The notes: generated from the sequence alone by a model not told the origin. A stretch of DNA of 32,827 nucleotides from a virus (IMGVR_UViG_2703718824_000005); one strand, 5' to 3'. Counted from the stretch's first letter, positions 5,786 through 18,093 are shown. Made by a program: numbers and translations.

Positions 5786-6120
5786 ACAGTTTAACAACAC
5801 ACTACCGTCGCTCGCAACTGATTGCGCTTCCTGTACCGGGTGGAAAAGCGAAGGTGGAATATTGCTATGCAGTGAATGTACCAGGTGACAGGGAAATTGT
5901 AACCCACAGCTTTGCAGAGTGGGCTGTGGGTGATTTCAACCGGCAGAAGGAGACAGTCCTTTGCGACAAGTTAACCGCTGGTTCAAAGATCACTACGGAG
6001 TGCTCGTCAGAGTCATTCGTTGGGAGCCGGAAACACAACGGGTTATCTACCTCCGCGAAGGTTATGAGCATGAATGCTTCAGTCCGCTCGAACAGTTTCG
6101 TCGTAAATTCAGGGAAATAG
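5782..6120 (+). CDS. Hypothetical protein; only the N-terminal part looks coding, possible frameshifted gene or two overlapping genes
   Basis: ATGA overlap with the upstream stop. The first 60 aa or so look protein-like; the C-terminal 50 aa are Ser-rich and low-complexity, while frame 0 (5961-6140, TTG start after AAGGAG) encodes a well-formed 59-aa peptide (see findings). Confidence 0.35.
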
Positions 6121-6129
6121 AGGTCGGTC

Positions 6130-7071
6130 ATGAGCACTAAATTAACCGGCTATGTATGGGATGGTTGCGCTGCATCAGGCATGAAGTTATCCAGCGTGGC
6201 AATTATGGCCCGCCTGGCTGATTTCAGTAATGACGAAGGTGTGTGCTGGCCATCAATTGAAACCATTGCCCGTCAGATTGGCGCGGGGATGAGTACCGTC
6301 AGAACGGCTATCGCACGGCTGGAAGCAGAAGGCTGGTTAACGCGTAAGGCGCGTCGCCAGGGTAACCGCAATGCGTCGAATGTTTATCAGCTTAACGTTG
6401 CGAAGCTTCAGGCAGCGGCATTTTCTCAACTGTCAGATTCTGACCCGTCAAAATCTGACGCATCAAAATCTGACCCGTCAAAATTTGATGCGTCGAAATC
6501 TGGCAAAAAAGCGGGTTTTCACCCGTCAGAATCTGGCGGGGATCCGTCAGTAAAATCAAAACATGATCCGTCAGATAAAAAACCTTCTCGTCCGGACGCT
6601 TCGCAACCGGACACGCAGACGGATGAACAGGATTTTTTAACTCGCCATCCTGATGCGGTTGTATTCAGCCCTAAAAAGCGCCAGTGGGGGACGCAGGATG
6701 ATTTGACCTGCGCACAGTGGCTCTGGAAAAAAATCATCGCCCTGTACGAGCATGCCGCCGAATGTGACGGCGAGGTGGTTCGTCCCAAAGAACCGAACTG
6801 GACAGCCTGGGCAAACGAAATTCGCCTGATGTGTGTGCAGGATGGTCGTACTCATAAACAAATCTGCGAGATGTACAGCCGCGTCAGTCGCGATCCGTTC
6901 TGGTGCCGTAACGTGCTCAGCCCGTCGAAGCTGCGGGAAAAATGGGATGAGCTTTCCCTGCGCTTATCGCCGTCCGTCAGCACGTACACCGAAAAACGCG
7001 AAGACCCGTACTTCAAAGCCAGTTACGACAACGTGGACTACAGCCAGATCCCAGCAGGATTCAGGGGGTGA
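6130..7071 (+). CDS. Replication initiation protein, lambda O-like (N-terminal HTH, iteron-encoded central repeats, C-terminal domain)
   Basis: 313 aa; N-terminal HTH (WPSIETIARQIGAGMSTVRTAIARLEAEGWL); central SKSD/PSKSD peptide repeats encoded by 18-bp DNA iterons; gene position after cII. Confidence 0.8.
   Translation: MSTKLTGYVWDGCAASGMKLSSVAIMARLADFSNDEGVCWPSIETIARQIGAGMSTVRTAIARLEAEGWLTRKARRQGNRNASNVYQLNVAKLQAAAFSQLSDSDPSKSDASKSDPSKFDASKSGKKAGFHPSESGGDPSVKSKHDPSDKKPSRPDASQPDTQTDEQDFLTRHPDAVVFSPKKRQWGTQDDLTCAQWLWKKIIALYEHAAECDGEVVRPKEPNWTAWANEIRLMCVQDGRTHKQICEMYSRVSRDPFWCRNVLSPSKLREKWDELSLRLSPSVSTYTEKREDPYFKASYDNVDYSQIPAGFRG
6420..6600. repeat. Candidate replication origin: about seven 18-bp iterons (core CCGTCARAATCTGA) inside the O-like gene, with an A/T-rich stretch downstream (about 6625-6645)
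   Basis: Direct repeats seen at 18-bp periodicity (gacccgtcaaaatctga, gacccgtcaaaatttga, cacccgtcagaatctgg, gatccgtcag...); lambda-like ori-within-O arrangement. Confidence 0.55.
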
Positions 7072-7073
7072 TT

Positions 7074-7562
7074 ATGAGTCTTTTGAATGATGTTCAGAAA
7101 TTCATTGAAGCCCATCCGGGGTGTACTTCCGGAGACATTGCGGATGCTTTTGCAGGTTACTCACGGCAGCGCGTTCTGCAGTCAGCAAGCAAGTTACGTC
7201 AGAGTGGGCGTGTGGCTCACCGTTGTGAAGGAGATACACGCAGACATTTCCCGCGCCTGACTGAGAGAGCGCAGGAGTCGGAACCACAACCAGTTCGTGA
7301 AACCAGACCTGTGCGCAATTTCTATGTCGGCACTAACGATCCCCGGGTGATTTTGTGCCTGACCCGCCAGGCGGAAGAACTGGAGTCCAGGGGCTTATAC
7401 CGTCGTGCTGCAACGGTGTGGATGGCGGCATTCCGTGAAAGCCACTCCCAGCCAGAACGAAACAATTTTCTGGCGCGTCGTGAGCAGTGTTTACGGAAAA
7501 GCAGCAAGCGCGCTGTATCGGGTGATGAGTGGTATCTGTCAGGGAATTACGTGGGGGCTTAA
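7074..7562 (+). CDS. Putative transcriptional regulator with PerC/ANR-like C-terminal motif
   Basis: ORF 7068..7562 trimmed to ATG 7074 (GGGGG RBS); the motif ELESRGLYRRAATVWMAAF resembles the PerC-family signature; N-terminal half looks like a winged-helix domain. Confidence 0.5.
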   Translation: MSLLNDVQKFIEAHPGCTSGDIADAFAGYSRQRVLQSASKLRQSGRVAHRCEGDTRRHFPRLTERAQESEPQPVRETRPVRNFYVGTNDPRVILCLTRQAEELESRGLYRRAATVWMAAFRESHSQPERNNFLARREQCLRKSSKRAVSGDEWYLSGNYVGA

Positions 7563-10763: not shown

Positions 10764-11516
10764 ATGAACCTTGAAGCCTTACCAAAATATTACTCCCCAA
10801 AATCTCCAAAATTGAGTGATGACGCACCGGCGACAGGCTCAGGTGGTTTAACGATTACGGATGTGATGGCTGCACAGGGGATGGTGCAGTCGAAAGCACC
10901 GCTTGGGTTTACCTTATTCCTGGCAAAAGTTGGCGTTCAGGATCCTCAGTTTGCGATTGAAGGTCTGCTCAATTACGCGATGGCACTGGATAACCCGACA
11001 TTGAACAAATTGAGTGAAGAAATCCGGTTACAGATCATCCCTTACCTTGTGAATTTTGCCTTTGCTGATTATTCCAGGTCTGCGGCAAGTAAGGCTCGCT
11101 GTGAGCATTGTGCTGGTACTGGATTTCATAATGTATTGCGCGAGGTGGTGAAACAATCCAGAAGCGGGGAATCTGTTATCAAGGAAGAGTGGGTAAAGGA
11201 ACTATGTCAGCATTGTCATGGTAAGGGAGAAGTCAGCACAGCGTGCAGAGGGTGTAAGGGTAAAGGTATTGTCCTGGATGAAAAAAGGACCCGGCTTCAT
11301 GGCACGCCTGTTTATAAGATTTGTGGGCGTTGCAATGGAAACCGGTTTAGCCGTTTACCAACCACACTGGCGCGGCATCATGTCCAGAAGCTGGTACCAG
11401 ACCTGACGGATTATCAGTGGTACAAAGGATATGCAGATGTCATTGATAAACTGGTTACAAAGTGCTGGCAGGAAGAAGCATATGCTGAGACACAATTGAG
11501 GAGAGTGACAAGATAA
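10764..11516 (+). CDS. Q: Late-gene antitermination protein Q
   Basis: 250 aa with CxxC...CxxC zinc-binding motifs (CEHCAGTG, CQHCHGKG, CRGCKGKG, CGRCNG); immediately upstream of the late promoter/terminator and the lysis cassette. Confidence 0.8.
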   Translation: MNLEALPKYYSPKSPKLSDDAPATGSGGLTITDVMAAQGMVQSKAPLGFTLFLAKVGVQDPQFAIEGLLNYAMALDNPTLNKLSEEIRLQIIPYLVNFAFADYSRSAASKARCEHCAGTGFHNVLREVVKQSRSGESVIKEEWVKELCQHCHGKGEVSTACRGCKGKGIVLDEKRTRLHGTPVYKICGRCNGNRFSRLPTTLARHHVQKLVPDLTDYQWYKGYADVIDKLVTKCWQEEAYAETQLRRVTR

Positions 11517-11547
11517 ATGATTTTCGCCGAAGATGGCGACATGATTC

Positions 11548-11584
11548 TTGCATTTTTCAAAAAATATGGTTAGGATTATCCTAA
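11548..11584 (+). promoter_or_regulatory. Candidate late promoter P_R' with qut-like palindrome
   Basis: TTGCAT (11548-11553), 17-nt spacer, TAGGAT (11571-11576); near-perfect palindrome ttaggattatcctaa (11570-11584) over the -10 and start region; about 30 bp downstream of the Q stop. Confidence 0.35.
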
Positions 11585-11622
11585 CGATGGGCTTTGTGTG
11601 TCTACCGTTGATAATCTTCTTG

Positions 11623-11648
11623 AACCCGCCATCGAGCGGGTTTTTTTT
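11623..11648 (+). terminator. Intrinsic terminator (tR'-like) about 65 nt downstream of the candidate late promoter
   Basis: Stem acccgc / gcgggt with 6-nt loop followed by T8 (aacccgccatcgagcgggtttttttt). Confidence 0.6.
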
Positions 11649-11719
11649 GTGCTCAAATTTCGAATAATGATTTGGTTATGCTATGTATTTATTTCCTTAC
11701 TTACTGAGGGAGTGATGCA

Positions 11720-11899
11720 ATGAGCAATACAAGATGTAGTAATGAAAGTTGCAATAAAGAGTTTATTTATTGGGAGCACAGTGGAGGCTATCCAGGAGGA
11801 AAGGATAAAGAGCCAATTATTTGCCCTTACTGTGGCCACACAAACGGTTATGAAATGACCAGTGGATTGATTTCCAGTAAAAAAATAGAAGAACAGTAG
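11720..11899 (+). CDS. Small zinc-ribbon protein (59 aa), moron between Q and the lysis cassette
   Basis: Own translation: MSNTRCSNESCNKEFIYWEHSGGYPGGKDKEPIICPYCGHTNGYEMTSGLISSKKIEEQ. GAGGGAG RBS 7 nt upstream; C-x4-C ... C-x2-C; followed by two terminator-like hairpins. Below the ORF-track cutoff. Confidence 0.4.
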   Translation: MSNTRCSNESCNKEFIYWEHSGGYPGGKDKEPIICPYCGHTNGYEMTSGLISSKKIEEQ

Positions 11900-11914
11900 T
11901 ATTCATATCTGTCT

Positions 11915-11942
11915 AGCCCTGGTATTTGCTGGGGCTTTTTGT
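11915..11942 (+). terminator. Terminator-like hairpin with T-run after the zinc-ribbon ORF
   Basis: agccc...gggct stem followed by ttttt. Confidence 0.4.
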
Positions 11943-11984
11943 TGCCTTCGCCTGATGAATTGACATTGCTTAACCCTCTGTTGT

Positions 11985-12008
11985 CAGCCATATGCTGGCT
12001 TTTTTATT
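11985..12008 (+). terminator. Second terminator-like hairpin (agcca-tatgc-tggct + T5)
   Basis: 5-bp stem, 5-nt loop, tttttatt tail; weak. Confidence 0.3.
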
Positions 12009-12122
12009 CAAGGCTTGCGGGGAGCATCAACTCCGTGCTTTGTCGTTAAATTAACCCGTGAGCCTGCATTCTGACATTTAACGTCCCGGCCTTTTGTCGG
12101 CGGCGAAACATTGGCTATTCAT

Positions 12123-12428
12123 ATGCACGAAAAAGAGAGCCTTGCCGGAGCGTTCTGGCTCGTTTTGCTGATCATTGCAGGTTGGGGCGGTCTGGTCCGC
12201 TACCTGATAGATGTGAAGCAGAGTAAAGCAACGTGGAGTTGGATAAATGCTCTGGCTCAAATAGTGGTATCAGGATTCACCGGTGTTATTGGTGGCCTGA
12301 TTAGCATCGAAAGTGGATTCAGTATTTACATGATTCTCGCGACAGCGGGGATTAGCGGTGCGATGGGGTCGGTTGCACTGACGTACTTCTGGGAACGACT
12401 GACAGGGGTGAAAAATGCAAAATCTTAA
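12123..12428 (+). CDS. Holin (multi-TM), possible dual-start holin/antiholin
   Basis: Three predicted hydrophobic helices; directly upstream of and overlapping the endolysin gene; the ORF track starts at TTG 12111 (MAIHM...), giving a two-start arrangement reminiscent of lambda S. Confidence 0.7.
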   Translation: MHEKESLAGAFWLVLLIIAGWGGLVRYLIDVKQSKATWSWINALAQIVVSGFTGVIGGLISIESGFSIYMILATAGISGAMGSVALTYFWERLTGVKNAKS

Positions 12429-12891
12429 TCCTCAGCGTAAAGCTTTCCTCGATATGGTGGCATGGTCAGAAGGAACGGATAACGGGCGACAACCGACACG
12501 TAACCACGGTTATGATGTTATTGTCGGTGGAGAACTCTTCACTGATTACTCCGATCACCCTCGCAAGCTTGTCACGCTAAACCCCAAACTCAAATCAACA
12601 GCAGCCGGACGTTATCAGCTTCTTTCACGCTGGTGGGATGCTTACCGTAAGCAGCTTGGCCTGAAAGACTTCTCCCCCAAAAGCCAGGACGCAGTGGCAT
12701 TGCAGCAGATTAAAGAACGTGGCGCTTTACCGATGATTGATCGCGGTGATATCCGTCAGGCAATCGACCGTTGCAGCAATATCTGGGCTTCACTGCCGGG
12801 GGCTGGTTATGGTCAGTTCGAGCATAAGGCTGACAACCTGATTGCAAAATTCAAAGAAGCTGGCGGAATGGTCAGAGAGATTGAGGTATGA
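12415..12891 (+). CDS. R: Endolysin, lambda R-type lytic transglycosylase
   Basis: 158 aa, near-identical over most of its length to lambda R as I recall it ([54 protein letters not shown]...). Confidence 0.95.
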
Positions 12892-13325
12892 GCAGAGTAA
12901 CCGCGATTATCTCCGCTCTGGTTATCTGCATCATCGTCTGCCTGTCATGGGCGGTTAATCATTACCGTGATAACGCCATTACCTACAAAGAGCAGCGCGA
13001 TAAGGCCACATCCACAATCGCTGACATGCAGAAGCGTCAACATGATGTAGCAGAACTCGATGCCAGATATACAAAGGAGCTTGCTGATGCTAACGCGACT
13101 ATCGAAAGTCTCCGTGATGATGTTTCTGCTGGGCGTAAGCGGCTGCAAGTCGCCGCCACCTGTGCAAAGTCAACGACCGGAGCCAGCAGCATGGGCGATG
13201 GAGAAAGCCCAAGACTTACAGCAGATGCTGAACTCAATTATTACCGCCTCCGAAGTGGAATCGACAAGATAACTGCACAGGTTAATTACCTACAGGAATA
13301 CATCAGAACTCAATGCCTGGATTAA
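12888..13325 (+). CDS. Rz: Spanin, inner-membrane subunit (Rz)
   Basis: N-terminus [34 protein letters not shown] matches lambda Rz; ATGA overlap with R. Confidence 0.9.
13090..13272 (+). CDS. Rz1: Spanin, outer-membrane lipoprotein subunit (Rz1), embedded in the +1 frame of Rz
   Basis: ORF 13060..13272 trimmed to the second Met (60 aa, as for lambda Rz1); lipobox-like LGVSGC followed by a Pro-rich segment; fully nested in Rz. Confidence 0.75.
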
Positions 13326-14077
13326 CAGGGGCGGATTGAACGATAGCTTTTTTCGAATTGTTATTCCTAGCACATTCTGTTCAATCTGCTGAGATCTACT
13401 CTGATGTGGGAGCACAATGGGTATCGAAATGATTATCTTGCTAGCTGCTGCGTTTAGCACTGCTACCGCTAGGGTATTCGGTCTAGGATATTCATACGGT
13501 ACTAGCGAAGTACAAATGAACGCTGATCAGAAGCGTTACGAATAGGAGGACTCAACATCTAGGCTATAGCAGAGCGCTGGATATAAGCAACGAAAGATAC
13601 CAACAAGGTATAGCAAACTGTTAATCATATGTCTGATAGTGGCGTTGATCACGAACTGCGCACAAGTAGGACATGCAAGGTTGAGTTAATTGACACAGGG
13701 CGGGACCGGGTGAGACCTATCTGTGCGGCTGTTGATTACTTGGATGAGCTCGATAAGTAGTCAAAGAAAAATATACAGGCATACAGCAAAGTATGGATGG
13801 CAGCTGTAGATAATTGTCTGAAAATATGGTTCTTAGTTAAGTGATAATGAACTTTTAAAAAAGTTAAGCATCCTACATATGTGATGTGGGTGATAGTTGT
13901 TTGTTAGCTGTTGGGACACAACATATAGAAAGTTGAGGAGAATAATGCCTTGTTGTGCAAAAAAAGCTTGATTTGCAAGTGAGAAATATGGCTAATGGAA
14001 GAAGAGATGTAGTAAGTGGATGTTTTATTTTGTTATTTATAGCTGTAGAATTTACCTAAAATCATAACCGCGGCTGG

Positions 14078-14464
14078 ATGATAATGGGTAAGTCAAAGGG
14101 CAAAGGTGGAAAATCAGGTAAAGGGCAACATTCAGTAAGTTTTGCTCAGGCATGGCGAGATGTGATGCTCAAAGCCATGACAACCGGTCAACTAGTGCCT
14201 ATAACTATAAGTATTGTACTGATGATTGCAGCTTGGCGCATGCCATCAGAGGAATTAGGAATACTAGCGCATCGAATTATTGACGGCTTAGCAGATCACT
14301 CTCTAATTGGGTATGGACTTTGTGTCATTGTTATCCTAGCGTGGTCTTGGCATGCAAGTATGATGCGCAGATGTTTTAGCGTGGAAGCTCGTCGTATTGG
14401 AGCAGAAAAAACTCTGCATCAACAGGCGAGAACACAAGTGCCACTGGGATCAAGCGACAATTAA
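14078..14464 (+). CDS. Hypothetical membrane protein with Lys/Gly-rich N-terminus and two predicted TM helices; low-GC moron
   Basis: 128-aa ORF in a markedly AT-rich island; hydrophobic segments ITISIVLMIAAW and LIGYGLCVIVILAWSW; weak RBS, start may be 14084. Confidence 0.5.
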   Translation: MIMGKSKGKGGKSGKGQHSVSFAQAWRDVMLKAMTTGQLVPITISIVLMIAAWRMPSEELGILAHRIIDGLADHSLIGYGLCVIVILAWSWHASMMRRCFSVEARRIGAEKTLHQQARTQVPLGSSDN

Positions 14465-14480
14465 TCCCTAAGGAGAAACT

Positions 14481-15059
14481 ATGCTGACAGTGCTTTTTTA
14501 TGTGCTGTTATGTATGGCAGCAGTGCATTTTATTTACGAAAGGATACTACTTCCATCTGTTCGTTTGCATTACCGCAATAAGCTTTTTGAACTGAGAGAT
14601 ATAGTTAGAAATCAAATAATTTCGAATAAAAGTAAAGATGATGTACAAGCGGCTGAGCTTGTACATGAGGCCTTAAACAACGCAATCAATCGTTTGCACC
14701 TTATGACTTTGCCCAACAGAGTGAGGGCTCAAAGGCGGCTCAGTGCTAATCCAGAGATACAGGCAAGGATCAAACGTGAGGTTGAACTTTTTCAGAAATG
14801 TGATAACGGGAAGTTAATAGCAACGATACGAGAATCAGCTAAAATCTTGGATAAGGTTTTGCTTTTCAATAGTTTAATGTTGATTATATATTCTCTTCCA
14901 ATTATGTTAACAATTTGGTCTGTGGCAAAAGTTCTGCAAACAGCCAACCAATTTTTAGAGTTACTCACTGAAAAACAAAGCCTAGAGCAGGCTGTTTTAC
15001 TTCTTCCTGATAGACAGGTTGCAAAGCTTGTTGCAGAAGAAAATTATGCATATGCATGA
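14481..15059 (+). CDS. Hypothetical membrane protein (N- and C-terminal TM helices flanking a charged helical region); low-GC moron
   Basis: 192 aa; strong AAGGAG RBS 7 nt upstream; 16-bp gap from the upstream gene suggests an operon; followed by two tandem intrinsic terminators. Confidence 0.55.
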   Translation: MLTVLFYVLLCMAAVHFIYERILLPSVRLHYRNKLFELRDIVRNQIISNKSKDDVQAAELVHEALNNAINRLHLMTLPNRVRAQRRLSANPEIQARIKREVELFQKCDNGKLIATIRESAKILDKVLLFNSLMLIIYSLPIMLTIWSVAKVLQTANQFLELLTEKQSLEQAVLLLPDRQVAKLVAEENYAYA

Positions 15060-15062
15060 TGT

Positions 15063-15088
15063 AAAAACCGCCTTCGGGCGGTTTTTTA
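15063..15088 (+). terminator. Intrinsic terminator (aaaaaccgcc-ttcg-ggcggttttt)
   Basis: Perfect GC-rich stem with tetraloop and T-run, A-run on the 5' side (potentially bidirectional); 4 bp after the moron cassette stop. Confidence 0.6.
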
Positions 15089-15142
15089 TTGCTTGTCCAA
15101 TGGACGGAATCGCCTCTATATTTCCCTTCATGGGATAGACTG

Positions 15143-15168
15143 AGCCTCGCTGATGCGAGGCTTTTTTA
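15143..15168 (+). terminator. Intrinsic terminator (gcctcgc-tgat-gcgaggc + T6)
   Basis: 7-bp stem, tetraloop, tttttt; second of a tandem pair upstream of the HNH gene. Confidence 0.6.
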
Positions 15169-15198
15169 TGCATTGATAAGCGTAAAGAGAGTCGATTA

Positions 15199-15549
15199 AT
15201 GCCACCACGAACCCCAAAAGCCTGCCGTGTTCGCGGCTGCCGCCATACCACAACTGACCCGTCAGGCTATTGCGAAAGCCACAAAAGTGAAGGCTGGAAG
15301 CAATACAAGCCGGGCCAGTCCAGACACCAGCGCGGTTATGGTTCGAAATGGGATGTTATCCGTGAACGTGTGCTCAAGCGTGACAAAGGACTGTGTCAGT
15401 TATGTCTGCGTGGTGGTGTGGTACGTGAGGCGAAAACCGTTGACCACATCATCCCTAAAGCGCATGGCGGCACTGATGCCGACAGCAATCTGCAGAGCCT
15501 GTGCTGGCTGTGTCATAAGGCGAAGACGGCCCGTGAACGGTTGAAGTAA
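15199..15549 (+). CDS. Phage HNH endonuclease, terminase-associated
   Basis: 116 aa; Cys-rich zinc motifs plus the H-N-H core (VDHIIPKAHGGTDADSNLQSLCWLCH); immediately upstream of the small terminase. Confidence 0.85.
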   Translation: MPPRTPKACRVRGCRHTTTDPSGYCESHKSEGWKQYKPGQSRHQRGYGSKWDVIRERVLKRDKGLCQLCLRGGVVREAKTVDHIIPKAHGGTDADSNLQSLCWLCHKAKTARERLK

Positions 15550-15569
15550 GAACCAGCTCCCACTGCCAC

Positions 15570-15636
15570 AGGGGAGGGGCGGGTCAAATCCCTGTGACCT
15601 GACGTCTTCCGGACTGCCCGCCCCATCGTTTTTTTA
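15570..15636 (+). other. GC-rich structured element with T-tract between HNH and terminase genes; candidate cos/packaging site and/or terminator
   Basis: Inverted repeat ggggcggg (15576-15583) / cccgcccc (15617-15624) around an inner ggtca/tgacc hairpin, followed by ttttttt; location typical for cos in HNH-TerS-TerL packaging modules. Confidence 0.3.
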
Positions 15637-15674
15637 TACCCGCGAAAAATGAAATTTAACCAGGAGTGCCGCAT

Positions 15675-16169
15675 ATGGCTGGAACGGCGGGGCGTTCCGG
15701 GCGTCGCCCCAAGCCAACGGCGCGCAAGGCGCTGGCCGGAAACCCCGGCAAGCGAGCCCTGAATAAAGATGAACCTGTTTTTACGCCCATCAAAGGTGTT
15801 GAGCCACCGGAGTGGTTCGCTGAAGAAGATCTCCCTCTCGCTACGATCATGTGGCAACTGACAACTAAAGAACTCTGCGGTCAGGGCCTGCTGTGCGTGA
15901 CTGACCTCGCGGTGCTTGAGCGGTGGTGCGTGGCCTACGAGTTCTGGCGACGTGCCGTGAAAAATATTGCCAGACAGGGCAACACCATCACCGGTGCAAT
16001 GGGCGGTATGGTCAAAAATCCGGAGCTGACCGCCAAAAAAGAACAGGAGTCCGAGATGAGCAGTACGGGGGCAATGCTCGGACTCGACCCCAGCAGCCGC
16101 CAGCGTCTGATTGGCCTGGCGGGGCAGAAGAAAGCCACTAACCCGTTTCTGAAAATCATCGAATCATGA
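15675..16169 (+). CDS. Terminase small subunit (P27 family)
   Basis: ORF 15666..16169 trimmed to ATG 15675 (AGGAG RBS, 8-nt spacer); basic N-terminus [22 protein letters not shown] typical of P27-type TerS; ATGA overlap with TerL. Confidence 0.85.
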
Positions 16170-17899
16170 GCCGGAAATCTTACCCCAACGTAAATGCTGC
16201 CAATCAGTATGCCCGTGATGTCGTGCGCGGAAATATTGTGGCCTGCCAGTTTGTGATTCAGGCCTGCCAGCGCCATCTTGATGACCTGATGGCGGAAAAA
16301 AGTAAGTCGTTTCGTTACCGCTTCGACAAGGACCTGGCTGAACGGGCCGCCAAATTTATTCAGCTGTTGCCACACACCAAGGGGGAGTGGGCATTCAAGA
16401 GGATGCCCATCACGCTGGAGCCGTGGCAGCTCTTTGTGATCTGCTGTGCGTTTGGCTGGGTCAATAAAGGTACCCGGCTGCGCCGCTTCCGGGAGGTGTA
16501 TACCGAAATCCCCCGTAAGAACGGCAAATCGGCAATCTCTGCCGGTGTCGCCCTGTATTGTTTTGCCTGTGATAACGAGTTTGGCGCGGAAGTGTATTCC
16601 GGTGCCACGACAGAGAAACAGGCGTGGGAAGTCTTTCGCCCGGCGCGACTGATGTGTAAACGCACACCCATGCTGACGGAAGCGTTCGGGATTGAGGTTA
16701 ACGCCTCAAACATGAACCGTCCGGAGGATGGCGCGCGGTTTGAACCGCTGATCGGTAACCCCGGTGATGGTTCATCACCCCACTGTGCGGTGGTGGATGA
16801 ATATCACGAGCACGCCACCGATGCGCTTTACACCACGATGCTTACCGGGATGGGGGCGCGACGTCAGCCACTGATGTGGGCCATTACTACTGCAGGGTAC
16901 AACATTGAGGGGCCGTGCTACGACAAGCGACGGGAAGTTATCGAGATGCTCAACGGGTCGGTACCCAACGATGAACTGTTCGGGATCATCTATACCGTTG
17001 ACGAAGGCGATGACTGGACCGACCCGCAGGTGCTGGAAAAAGCCAACCCGAATATTGGCGTGTCGGTTTATCGCGAATTTTTGTTAAGTCAGCAGCAGCG
17101 TGCGAAAAATAACGCCCGTCTGGCAAACGTCTTTAAAACAAAACACCTCAATATCTGGGTGTCGGCGCGTTCGGCGTATTTCAACCTGGTGAGCTGGCAG
17201 AGCTGCGAGGATAAATCACTGACCCTTGAGCAGTTCGAGGGGCAGCCGTGCATTCTGGCCTTTGACCTGGCGCGTAAGCTGGATATGAACAGTATGGCGC
17301 GACTTTATACCCGCGAGATTGATGGTAAAACGCATTACTACAGTGTGGCTCCGCGCTTCTGGGTACCGTATGACACGGTGTACAGCGTCGAGAAAAATGA
17401 AGATCGCCGGACAGCCGAACGCTTTCAGAAATGGGTGGAAATGGGCGTTCTGACCGTTACCGCTGGTGCGGAGGTGGATTATCGCTACATCCTCGAGGAG
17501 GCCAAAGCGGCGAACAAAATCAGCCCGGTCAGCGAGTCACCCATCGACCCCTTCGGGGCGACCGGGCTCTCACATGACCTTGCTGATGAAGACCTGAACC
17601 CCATCACTATCATTCAGAACTACACCAACATGTCCGACCCGATGAAAGAGCTGGAAGCGGCAATTGAATCGGGGCGCTTTCATCATGATGGCAATCCCAT
17701 CATGACCTGGTGTATCGGCAACGTGGTCGGCAAAACCATTCCGGGTAACGATGATGTGGTGAAGCCCGTCAAAGAGCAGGCGGAAAACAAAATCGATGGT
17801 GCAGTTGCGCTGATTATGGCGGTTGGCAGAGCCATGCTGTACGAGAAAGAAGACACGTTGTCTGACCACATTGAGTCCTACGGGATCCGCTCGCTTTAA
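16166..17899 (+). CDS. Terminase large subunit
   Basis: 577 aa; Walker-A-like RKNGKS; size and position between TerS and portal. Confidence 0.9.
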
Positions 17900-17910
17900 C
17901 TGAGGTAATT

Positions 17911-18093
17911 ATGAACATGCTGATTCTCGCGCCTCTGGTGGGCGTGCTGGGGGCGCTTTTGCTGGCGTATGGTGCCTGGCTGATTTATCCCCCGGCGGGG
18001 TTTGTTGTTGCCGGGGCGTTGTGCCTGTTCTGGTCGTGGCTGGTGGCGCGATATCTTGACCGTACACAGTCGTCTGTCGGCGGAGGTAAATAG
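17911..18093 (+). CDS. Small hydrophobic protein (60 aa, two predicted TM helices) between terminase and portal
   Basis: GAGG RBS 6 nt upstream of the ATG; unusual location, so modest confidence. Confidence 0.4.

Follow-up and report, generated by a model that had tools for sequence, protein, structure and literature searches.

The closest described relatives of the locus considered here are the lysis cassettes of phages mEp390, HK639 and SaltyDalty, in which two holins and an endolysin are followed by a 91-aa i-spanin and an overlapping o-spanin. Phage lambda, whose Rz/Rz1 pair belongs to the same function class, carries bor after Rz. Promoter-gene-terminator cassettes called morons, first described for HK97 and HK022, are found inside the lambdoid late operon, while type I toxins such as Hok, Ldr, Ibs and TisB are encoded by short hydrophobic ORFs. 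The embedded and overlapped architectures of spanin pairs are named throughout as in PMC6139136. Finally, Rst_2TM_1TM_TIR of the P2-like phage AC1 is a three-gene system that protects against lambda, LF82_P8 and P2 (Rousset et al. 2022, PMC9122126).

The locus lies in a lambdoid E. coli prophage (IMGVR_UViG_2703718824_000005), of which the whole stretch analysed, 32,827 nt, is referred to as the window. Between Rz and the genes of two membrane proteins (2TM and 1TM), an initial annotation had pointed out an AT-rich gap of about 750 bp in which no ORF reaches 60 aa. The length proved exact: in a six-frame scan of the 32.8 kb, no other part of the window that is free of such ORFs on both strands is as long as 13326-14077 (752 nt), the runner-up being the Q-holin interval with 561 nt. 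The composition also stands (GC 0.404 against 0.517 for the window), with the reservation that it is uneven, since strong AT-richness is limited to the final third (252 nt, 13826-14077, GC 0.337) while the first 500 nt (13326-13825, 0.438) are mildly low in GC. The gap sequence is 99.9-100% identical in 6 of the 5,426 complete E. coli genomes, and the RefSeq (PGAP) annotation places no feature in it in any of these six. Our analyses indicate that the gap is very probably a recombination scar in a mosaic lambdoid prophage, made up of a decayed spanin pair, a piece of orphan DNA, and the putative promoter and leader of the downstream cassette. The features of the region are as follows.

10764-11516: Q antiterminator (Pfam Antiterm, 3.4e-53)
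12111-12428: holin (Pfam Phage_holin_3_3)
12415-12891: lysozyme (GH24 in the RefSeq annotation)
12888-13325, plus strand: intact Rz (i-spanin) of lambda/HK022 type (Pfam Phage_lysis, 3.7e-37)
about 13117-13272: Rz1 (o-spanin), embedded in Rz (Pfam Rz1, 1.3e-19)
13326-13369: junction filler of 44 nt without detectable relative
13370-13416, plus strand: endolysin 3' relic, spacer and Shine-Dalgarno (HK639 homology, nucleotide alignment)
13417-13693, plus strand: i-spanin pseudogene, phrog_1026 (blastn, tblastn, PHROG, codon map)
13606-13822, plus strand: overlapped o-spanin pseudogene, phrog_1275 (tblastn, PHROG, codon map)
13826-14022: orphan AT-rich DNA, no homologues outside copies of the same element
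14023-14051, plus strand: promoter-like footprint of the 2TM-1TM cassette (alignment of eight cassettes, PWM scan)
14052-14083, plus strand: putative 5' leader (alignment of eight cassettes)
14084-14464, plus strand: 2TM protein gene (PADLOC)
14481-15059, plus strand: 1TM protein gene (PADLOC)
15063-15086 and 15142-15163, plus strand: two intrinsic-terminator-like hairpins (terminator scan)
15199-15549: HNH endonuclease
15666-16169: P27-type small terminase
16166-17899: large terminase

It is of side interest that the Q-holin interval (11517-12077), presumably the late promoter and terminator region, holds a 59-aa ORF (11720-11899) that PGAP calls hypothetical and that has sub-threshold Pfam zinc-ribbon matches (E ~0.005-0.09), and that weak Rfam matches fall at 11565-11649 of the same interval.

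The identity of the first part of the gap emerges from its alignment with phages. A distant-mode blastn of the gap aligned 13417-13791 with the spanin genes of mEp390, HK639 and SaltyDalty at 68-78% nucleotide identity, and a sensitive blastn stretched the homology to the spanin cassette over 13370-13801. The homology with HK639 begins at 13370, within the last ~47 nt of the HK639 endolysin gene, and the stop codon of this endolysin relic has mutated from TGA to TGG. The initial annotation had singled out a 42-aa ORF at 13417-13545 (plus strand), which reads exactly as it was given there, with a GGGAG 4 nt upstream of the ATG, present at 13408-13412. In the nucleotide alignment the ribosome-binding region upstream of this ORF is homologous too (CTGATGTGGGAGCACAATGGG versus CTGGTGTGAGGTCACTATGGG), so that the GGGAG is the old Shine-Dalgarno sequence of the i-spanin gene. 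At the protein level (tblastn), the 42-aa ORF matches residues 1-42 of mEp390 gp51 end to end with 50% identity (gp51 match, 1.8e-15); i-spanin residues 50-82 resume at 13563-13661, in a different frame that contains two stops; YSKLLIICLIVALITNCAQ, the signal peptide of the o-spanin, is found at 13609-13683; and the mature o-spanin follows in yet another frame, 13677-13823, with a stop (SaltyDalty o-spanin match, 6e-12). Among PHROG families, phrog_1026 ("Rz-like spanin") was hit at 9.5e-17 by the reconstructed protein and at 5.7e-5 by the 42 residues alone, and phrog_1275 at 4.7e-5 by the o-spanin. A six-frame scan of 13300-14100 with Pfam and PHROG found phrog_1026, split over two frames, as the sole family, together with one sub-threshold Pfam match that we take as chance.

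The layout of the relic is that of loci L007-L026, mEp390 and SaltyDalty, where the o-spanin overlaps the 3' part of the i-spanin in another frame and an endolysin, here a remnant, comes before. The spanins of mEp390 (gp51/gp52), HK639 (gp70/gp71) and SaltyDalty resemble the relic in both genes, in the ribosome-binding site, in the start and in the register of the overlap, and their position, after the endolysin and before HNH-terminase, is also that of the relic. They are set apart in that the relic adjoins a lambda-type Rz whereas those pairs adjoin their own endolysin, and it carries eight disabling lesions where they are intact. Judged by these alignments, 13370-13825 is the end of a lysis cassette of mEp390/HK639 type that was displaced, and we are highly confident in reading the 42-aa ORF as a truncated i-spanin reduced to its N-terminal transmembrane part. 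A tblastn search for the small mEp390 gp53-like ORF that follows the spanins found no trace of it in the gap. The SaltyDalty record itself (PP925825) leaves an intact 89-aa i-spanin at 2349-2618 unannotated and carries a wrong-frame 46-aa ORF in its place.

A codon-by-codon map located the eight disabling lesions across the two spanin genes, four in each.

13543-13545, i-spanin: TAG replacing the Glu-43 codon, which creates the 42-aa ORF
after 13561, i-spanin: deletion of 1 nt
13584-13586, i-spanin: TAA
13611-13613, i-spanin: TAG
13606-13608, o-spanin: start codon changed from ATG to AGG
after 13682, o-spanin: deletion of 1 nt
13758-13760, o-spanin: TAG
after 13803, o-spanin: deletion of 1 nt

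With these lesions, no uninterrupted frame runs through the transmembrane and periplasmic parts of the i-spanin, of which the first 42 codons alone are open, and the o-spanin has neither start codon, nor proper lipobox, nor open frame. The lipobox of the relic reads ITNC, against IASC in the relatives and a consensus of [LVI][ASTVI][GAS]C (PMC6139136), and two conserved residues of the o-spanin have been replaced (Cys33 to Arg, Trp35 to Arg).

The extent of this decay can be appreciated against the intact genes. A scan of GTDB genome contigs, taking one genome per species, provided 20 intact relatives in Enterobacter, Citrobacter, Kluyvera, Leclercia, Pseudocitrobacter, Klebsiella and others. 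The i-spanin is 89-92 aa long in 23 of 23 intact relatives; 18 of the 20 relatives from the scan, and at least 20 of the 23 overall, also showed an overlapped lipoprotein o-spanin. The median i-spanin identity among the 23 intact copies is 76%, while the window copy reaches 37-49% against them and retains only 28 of the 52 columns with 90% conservation or more. Between intact genes, differences at codon positions 1, 2 and 3 amount to 0.08-0.15, 0.11-0.15 and 0.36-0.43, a pattern which speaks for purifying selection on intact i-spanin genes; between the window and the intact genes, the corresponding values over the whole gene are 0.34-0.38, 0.24-0.27 and 0.45-0.49, and over codons 1-42 against mEp390 they are 0.36, 0.24 and 0.50. 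By the same measure, the lineage of the window i-spanin is under relaxed constraint, and its 42 open codons are preserved no better than the dead part. Closer or partly decayed relatives of the relic were found neither in E. coli genomes (distant mode) nor in GTDB contigs, IMG/VR or JGI metagenomes, where every match was either a nearly identical copy or an intact relative with no more than 54% identity, with nothing between, so that the relic's age and source are inferred.

Gene order shows where such a pair belongs. In L010 (Citrobacter) and L016 (Kluyvera), an intact spanin pair is followed by HNH-terS-terL, collinear with 15199-17999 of the window at 77-78% nucleotide identity, and the relic thus stands where the native spanins of the head-gene lineage belong. 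The initial annotation had reasoned that an intact gene in related phages, disrupted in this sequence, would reduce the gap to simple decay, and the alignment with related prophages found precisely this. On the other side, the lambda-type holin, lysozyme, Rz and Rz1 set directly upstream of the gap is complete, its holin, Rz and Rz1 matching Pfam families. When 12700-13600 was compared by megablast with 50,697 phage records, 320 of them matched; in the best-matching of these 320 that were listed, the lambda-type R-Rz homology stops at 13318-13319, a few bases short of the Rz stop codon, which places a mosaic junction at the end of Rz. The 44 nt that separate Rz from the endolysin relic (13326-13369) had no match in a sensitive blastn against the fetched loci. 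It is worth stressing that the relic does not derive from its neighbour: Rz/Rz1 of lambda type, intact and immediately upstream (12888-13325), is an embedded pair from another sequence family, whereas the relic is overlapped. This intact, functional pair makes the old one redundant.

The homology, the lesions, the gene order and the positions of the junctions are direct observations. The most economical history, in an order of events that we infer, is a swap of lysis cassettes followed by decay. The head-gene end (HNH, P27-type small terminase, large terminase) belongs to a lineage with a lysis cassette of mEp390/HK639 type. A cassette of lambda/HK022 type, made of holin, GH24 lysozyme and Rz with Rz1 embedded in it, would then have been brought in upstream by recombination, at the expense of all of the old cassette that precedes the last ~47 nt of its endolysin gene. 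Made redundant in this way, the old spanins would have decayed, the i-spanin through three nonsense codons and one frameshift, the o-spanin through loss of its start, damage to its lipobox, a nonsense codon and two frameshifts. What is left in frame is the 42-aa peptide, namely the transmembrane segment of the i-spanin up to the first nonsense codon, behind the old ribosome-binding site. A low-GC 2TM-1TM cassette would have been inserted between the old spanins and the terminator that precedes HNH; its promoter-like footprint and leader make up the last ~60 nt of the gap, with ~200 nt of orphan DNA between.

Could the 42-aa ORF nevertheless be functional? The initial annotation had likened it to type I toxins or small membrane regulators, and taken by itself it does look the part: it is intact with its GGGAG 4 nt upstream, it is a short hydrophobic ORF like those of Hok, Ldr, Ibs and TisB, fitting the description of a small hydrophobic toxin by its 42 aa and a Kyte-Doolittle value of 1.79, its length is constant on at least 939 contigs, and its place in the late operon means that it would be transcribed at induction, even if such expression of the relic probably serves no purpose. 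The exact sequence is called "hypothetical protein" by other gene callers on at least 909 E. coli contigs, and the variants are E42K on 29 contigs and A11D with E42K on one. Against this stands the fact that the whole ORF aligns with i-spanin residues 1-42, that its stop, in place of Glu-43, is one of several nonsense codons, and that its GGGAG is the i-spanin ribosome-binding site. Its best 19-residue segment, the one at 1.79, includes an Arg within the membrane segment and lies below the 2.2-2.8 of intact relatives; residues conserved in the family are gone; the first and second codon positions have changed as often as in the dead part; and the sole polymorphisms seen are non-synonymous, one of them putting an Asp into the helix (A11D). 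Unlike type I systems, the ORF shows no antisense RNA signal, Rfam match or independent conservation and originates from a truncated i-spanin: no toxin-antitoxin RNA of Rfam is found in the gap, and no promoter-like site was called on its minus strand, the nearest being at 14305-14276. We therefore regard as very unlikely the idea that a type I toxin or regulator of the inner membrane was exapted from the i-spanin transmembrane segment, and there is only a slender chance that the 42-aa transmembrane fragment, translated from late mRNA, has found a new use, be it in tuning lysis or in concert with the 2TM-1TM pair that it always accompanies. A truncated i-spanin remains the reading that we retain. 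A 527-aa protein placed in the same cluster as the 42-aa ORF reads as unrelated and looks like a clustering artefact.

The other end of the gap belongs to the downstream cassette. The genes at 14084-14464 and 14481-15059 match the PADLOC families 2TM-TIR (5.8e-57) and 1TM-TIR (7e-79), and their products are 62% (2TM) and 53% (1TM) identical to those of the P2-like phage AC1. The window shares with Rst_2TM_1TM_TIR of AC1 the first two genes without the TIR gene, of which a tblastn with the AC1 TIR protein found no trace in the window, the 1TM gene being followed by the terminators and HNH; moreover, the cassette sits in a lambdoid late region whereas that of AC1 occupies a P2 hotspot. The pair without TIR also occurs in five distinct P2-like hotspot loci (L028/L029 and L030-L033), the portal gene following within ~350 nt, and among loci L028-L036 the TIR gene is present only in AC1-like L034 and L035. 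The 2TM-1TM pair may be a self-contained module to which TIR is an add-on.

The initial annotation had also suggested that the gap might carry the promoter and leader of this membrane cassette, and this is supported for its last ~60 nt on the plus strand (14023-14083), by virtue of a shared footprint, but not for the remainder. We aligned ~110 nt upstream of eight homologous cassette genes, which share the pattern TTTTGAC(T/G), 17-18 nt, TGTA(C/G/A)(T/A)(A/C)T, GCGGCTGG, ATGGG. In the window, the -10 element TAGAAT (14046-14051) falls inside the invariant TGTAnnnT motif, the conserved GCGGCTGG lies at 14070-14077 in the putative leader, and the -35 region is degenerate (TTTTAT/TTTATT at 14023-14029, against TTGAC(T/G) in the homologues). 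Promoter and terminator prediction, proposed as a check, gave a divided answer: a consensus scan called neither promoter nor terminator on the plus strand of the gap, and a PWM scan, in which the site ranks in the top ~0.1% of the window, agreed with the alignment on the footprint at 14023-14051. The conserved start is the ATG at 14084 (MGK...), supported by the eight homologues and PGAP, as against the mechanical ORF start at 14078 (MIMGK...). We have moderate confidence that 14023-14083 is the promoter and leader of the 2TM-1TM cassette.

One may extend this proposal to the whole 750 bp, which would then be the regulatory region (promoter, operator, leader) that arrived together with the cassette. 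Low-GC DNA is indeed common to the upstream of all homologous cassettes (0.36-0.42 in 250 nt), 13268-15389 moves as a single block with hardly any variation, and the footprint at the 3' end of the gap fits such a role. Yet homologous IMG/VR cassettes share window DNA from 14055 to 15090 only (in L028/L029 the homology begins at 14055), so that, footprint included, homology to other loci starts no earlier than ~14023-14055; 13370-13825 is occupied by the spanin/endolysin relic; and no consensus promoter is found elsewhere on the plus strand of the gap. A regulatory region spanning the entire gap is accordingly unlikely, and we keep to a composite in which the cassette contributes only the end.

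The cassette itself is reminiscent of morons by its GC content (0.40 against 0.52), by a promoter-like footprint upstream and two strong intrinsic terminators downstream, and by its absence from the syntenic relatives L010 and L016; it departs from them in that its promoter is putative, with a degenerate -35 in the window copy. The first of the two hairpins (AAAAACCGCCTTCGGGCGGTTTTT) is also found upstream of HNH in L016 (Kluyvera) and L011 (Leclercia), hence it belongs to the ancestral backbone and not to the cassette. Weak sub-threshold Rfam sRNA matches overlap this first terminator (15063-15086).

Between the relic and the footprint, 13826-14022 has no relatives in phages, E. coli, plasmids or IMG/VR beyond copies of the same element, and no protein-family signal in six-frame Pfam and PHROG scans. 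A search for repeats gave short two-copy matches only, which we take as chance. The initial annotation had envisaged an sRNA in the part of the gap outside the 42-aa ORF, and a long non-coding stretch in a gene-dense phage, with a weak terminator-like hairpin on the minus strand (13537-13519), would suit a small or otherwise structured regulatory RNA. The scans gave no substance to this proposal: Rfam, searched over 11000-16000 at E<=1, returned nothing inside the gap, the folding energy of 13826-14077 is no better than that of shuffled sequences on either strand (z +0.81 and -0.20), no plus-strand terminator lies in the gap, conservation is confined to near-identical copies, and over half of the gap is a relic of coding sequence. 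A regulatory RNA is in our opinion extremely unlikely.

The suggestion of a decayed gene such as a bor-like remnant was right as to the decay and wrong as to the gene. The position after Rz is the one that bor occupies in lambda, and a remnant of bor or of another moron could have been expected there; six-frame scans of the gap with Pfam (E<=0.05) and PHROG found neither Bor nor any non-spanin family, and what has decayed is the i-spanin/o-spanin pair. At the sensitivity of profile HMMs the bor-like remnant is refuted, and we grant this reading next to no probability.

Copies of the element inform us on how the scar spreads. From 13268 to 15389, a block that spans the end of Rz, the spanin relic, the orphan DNA, the 2TM-1TM cassette and the first half of HNH, two SNPs only (13540 and 13800) separate copies that differ by 3-6% in their flanks. 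Relic and cassette are thus passed on together, within a block that resembles a recombination module of recent spread; owing to its near-invariance, polymorphism is uninformative about constraint on the 42-aa ORF. Locus L042, also compared over this block, differs in its holin region, and its Rz is 153 aa long.

The explanation of the gap is an ordinary one and is mainly of housekeeping value. It accounts for a 750-bp hole that recurs without annotation in E. coli prophages, and a spurious "small hydrophobic protein" present on more than 900 contigs need not be read as a toxin. Beyond annotation, it offers a clean and datable case of module exchange among lambdoid phages, in which the lysis cassette would have been swapped in front of a spanin pair thereby orphaned; the relic shows which lysis type the head-gene lineage had ancestrally, and it fixes the left edge, with a likely promoter, of a 2TM-1TM cassette related to an anti-phage system.

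A last observation concerns the gene that closes the block. In E. coli FHI_NMBU_10 (5874-7485), the HNH gene equivalent to 15199-15549 of the window, next to the terminase, is itself split by an IS3 insertion, and this prophage copy is probably defective for packaging.
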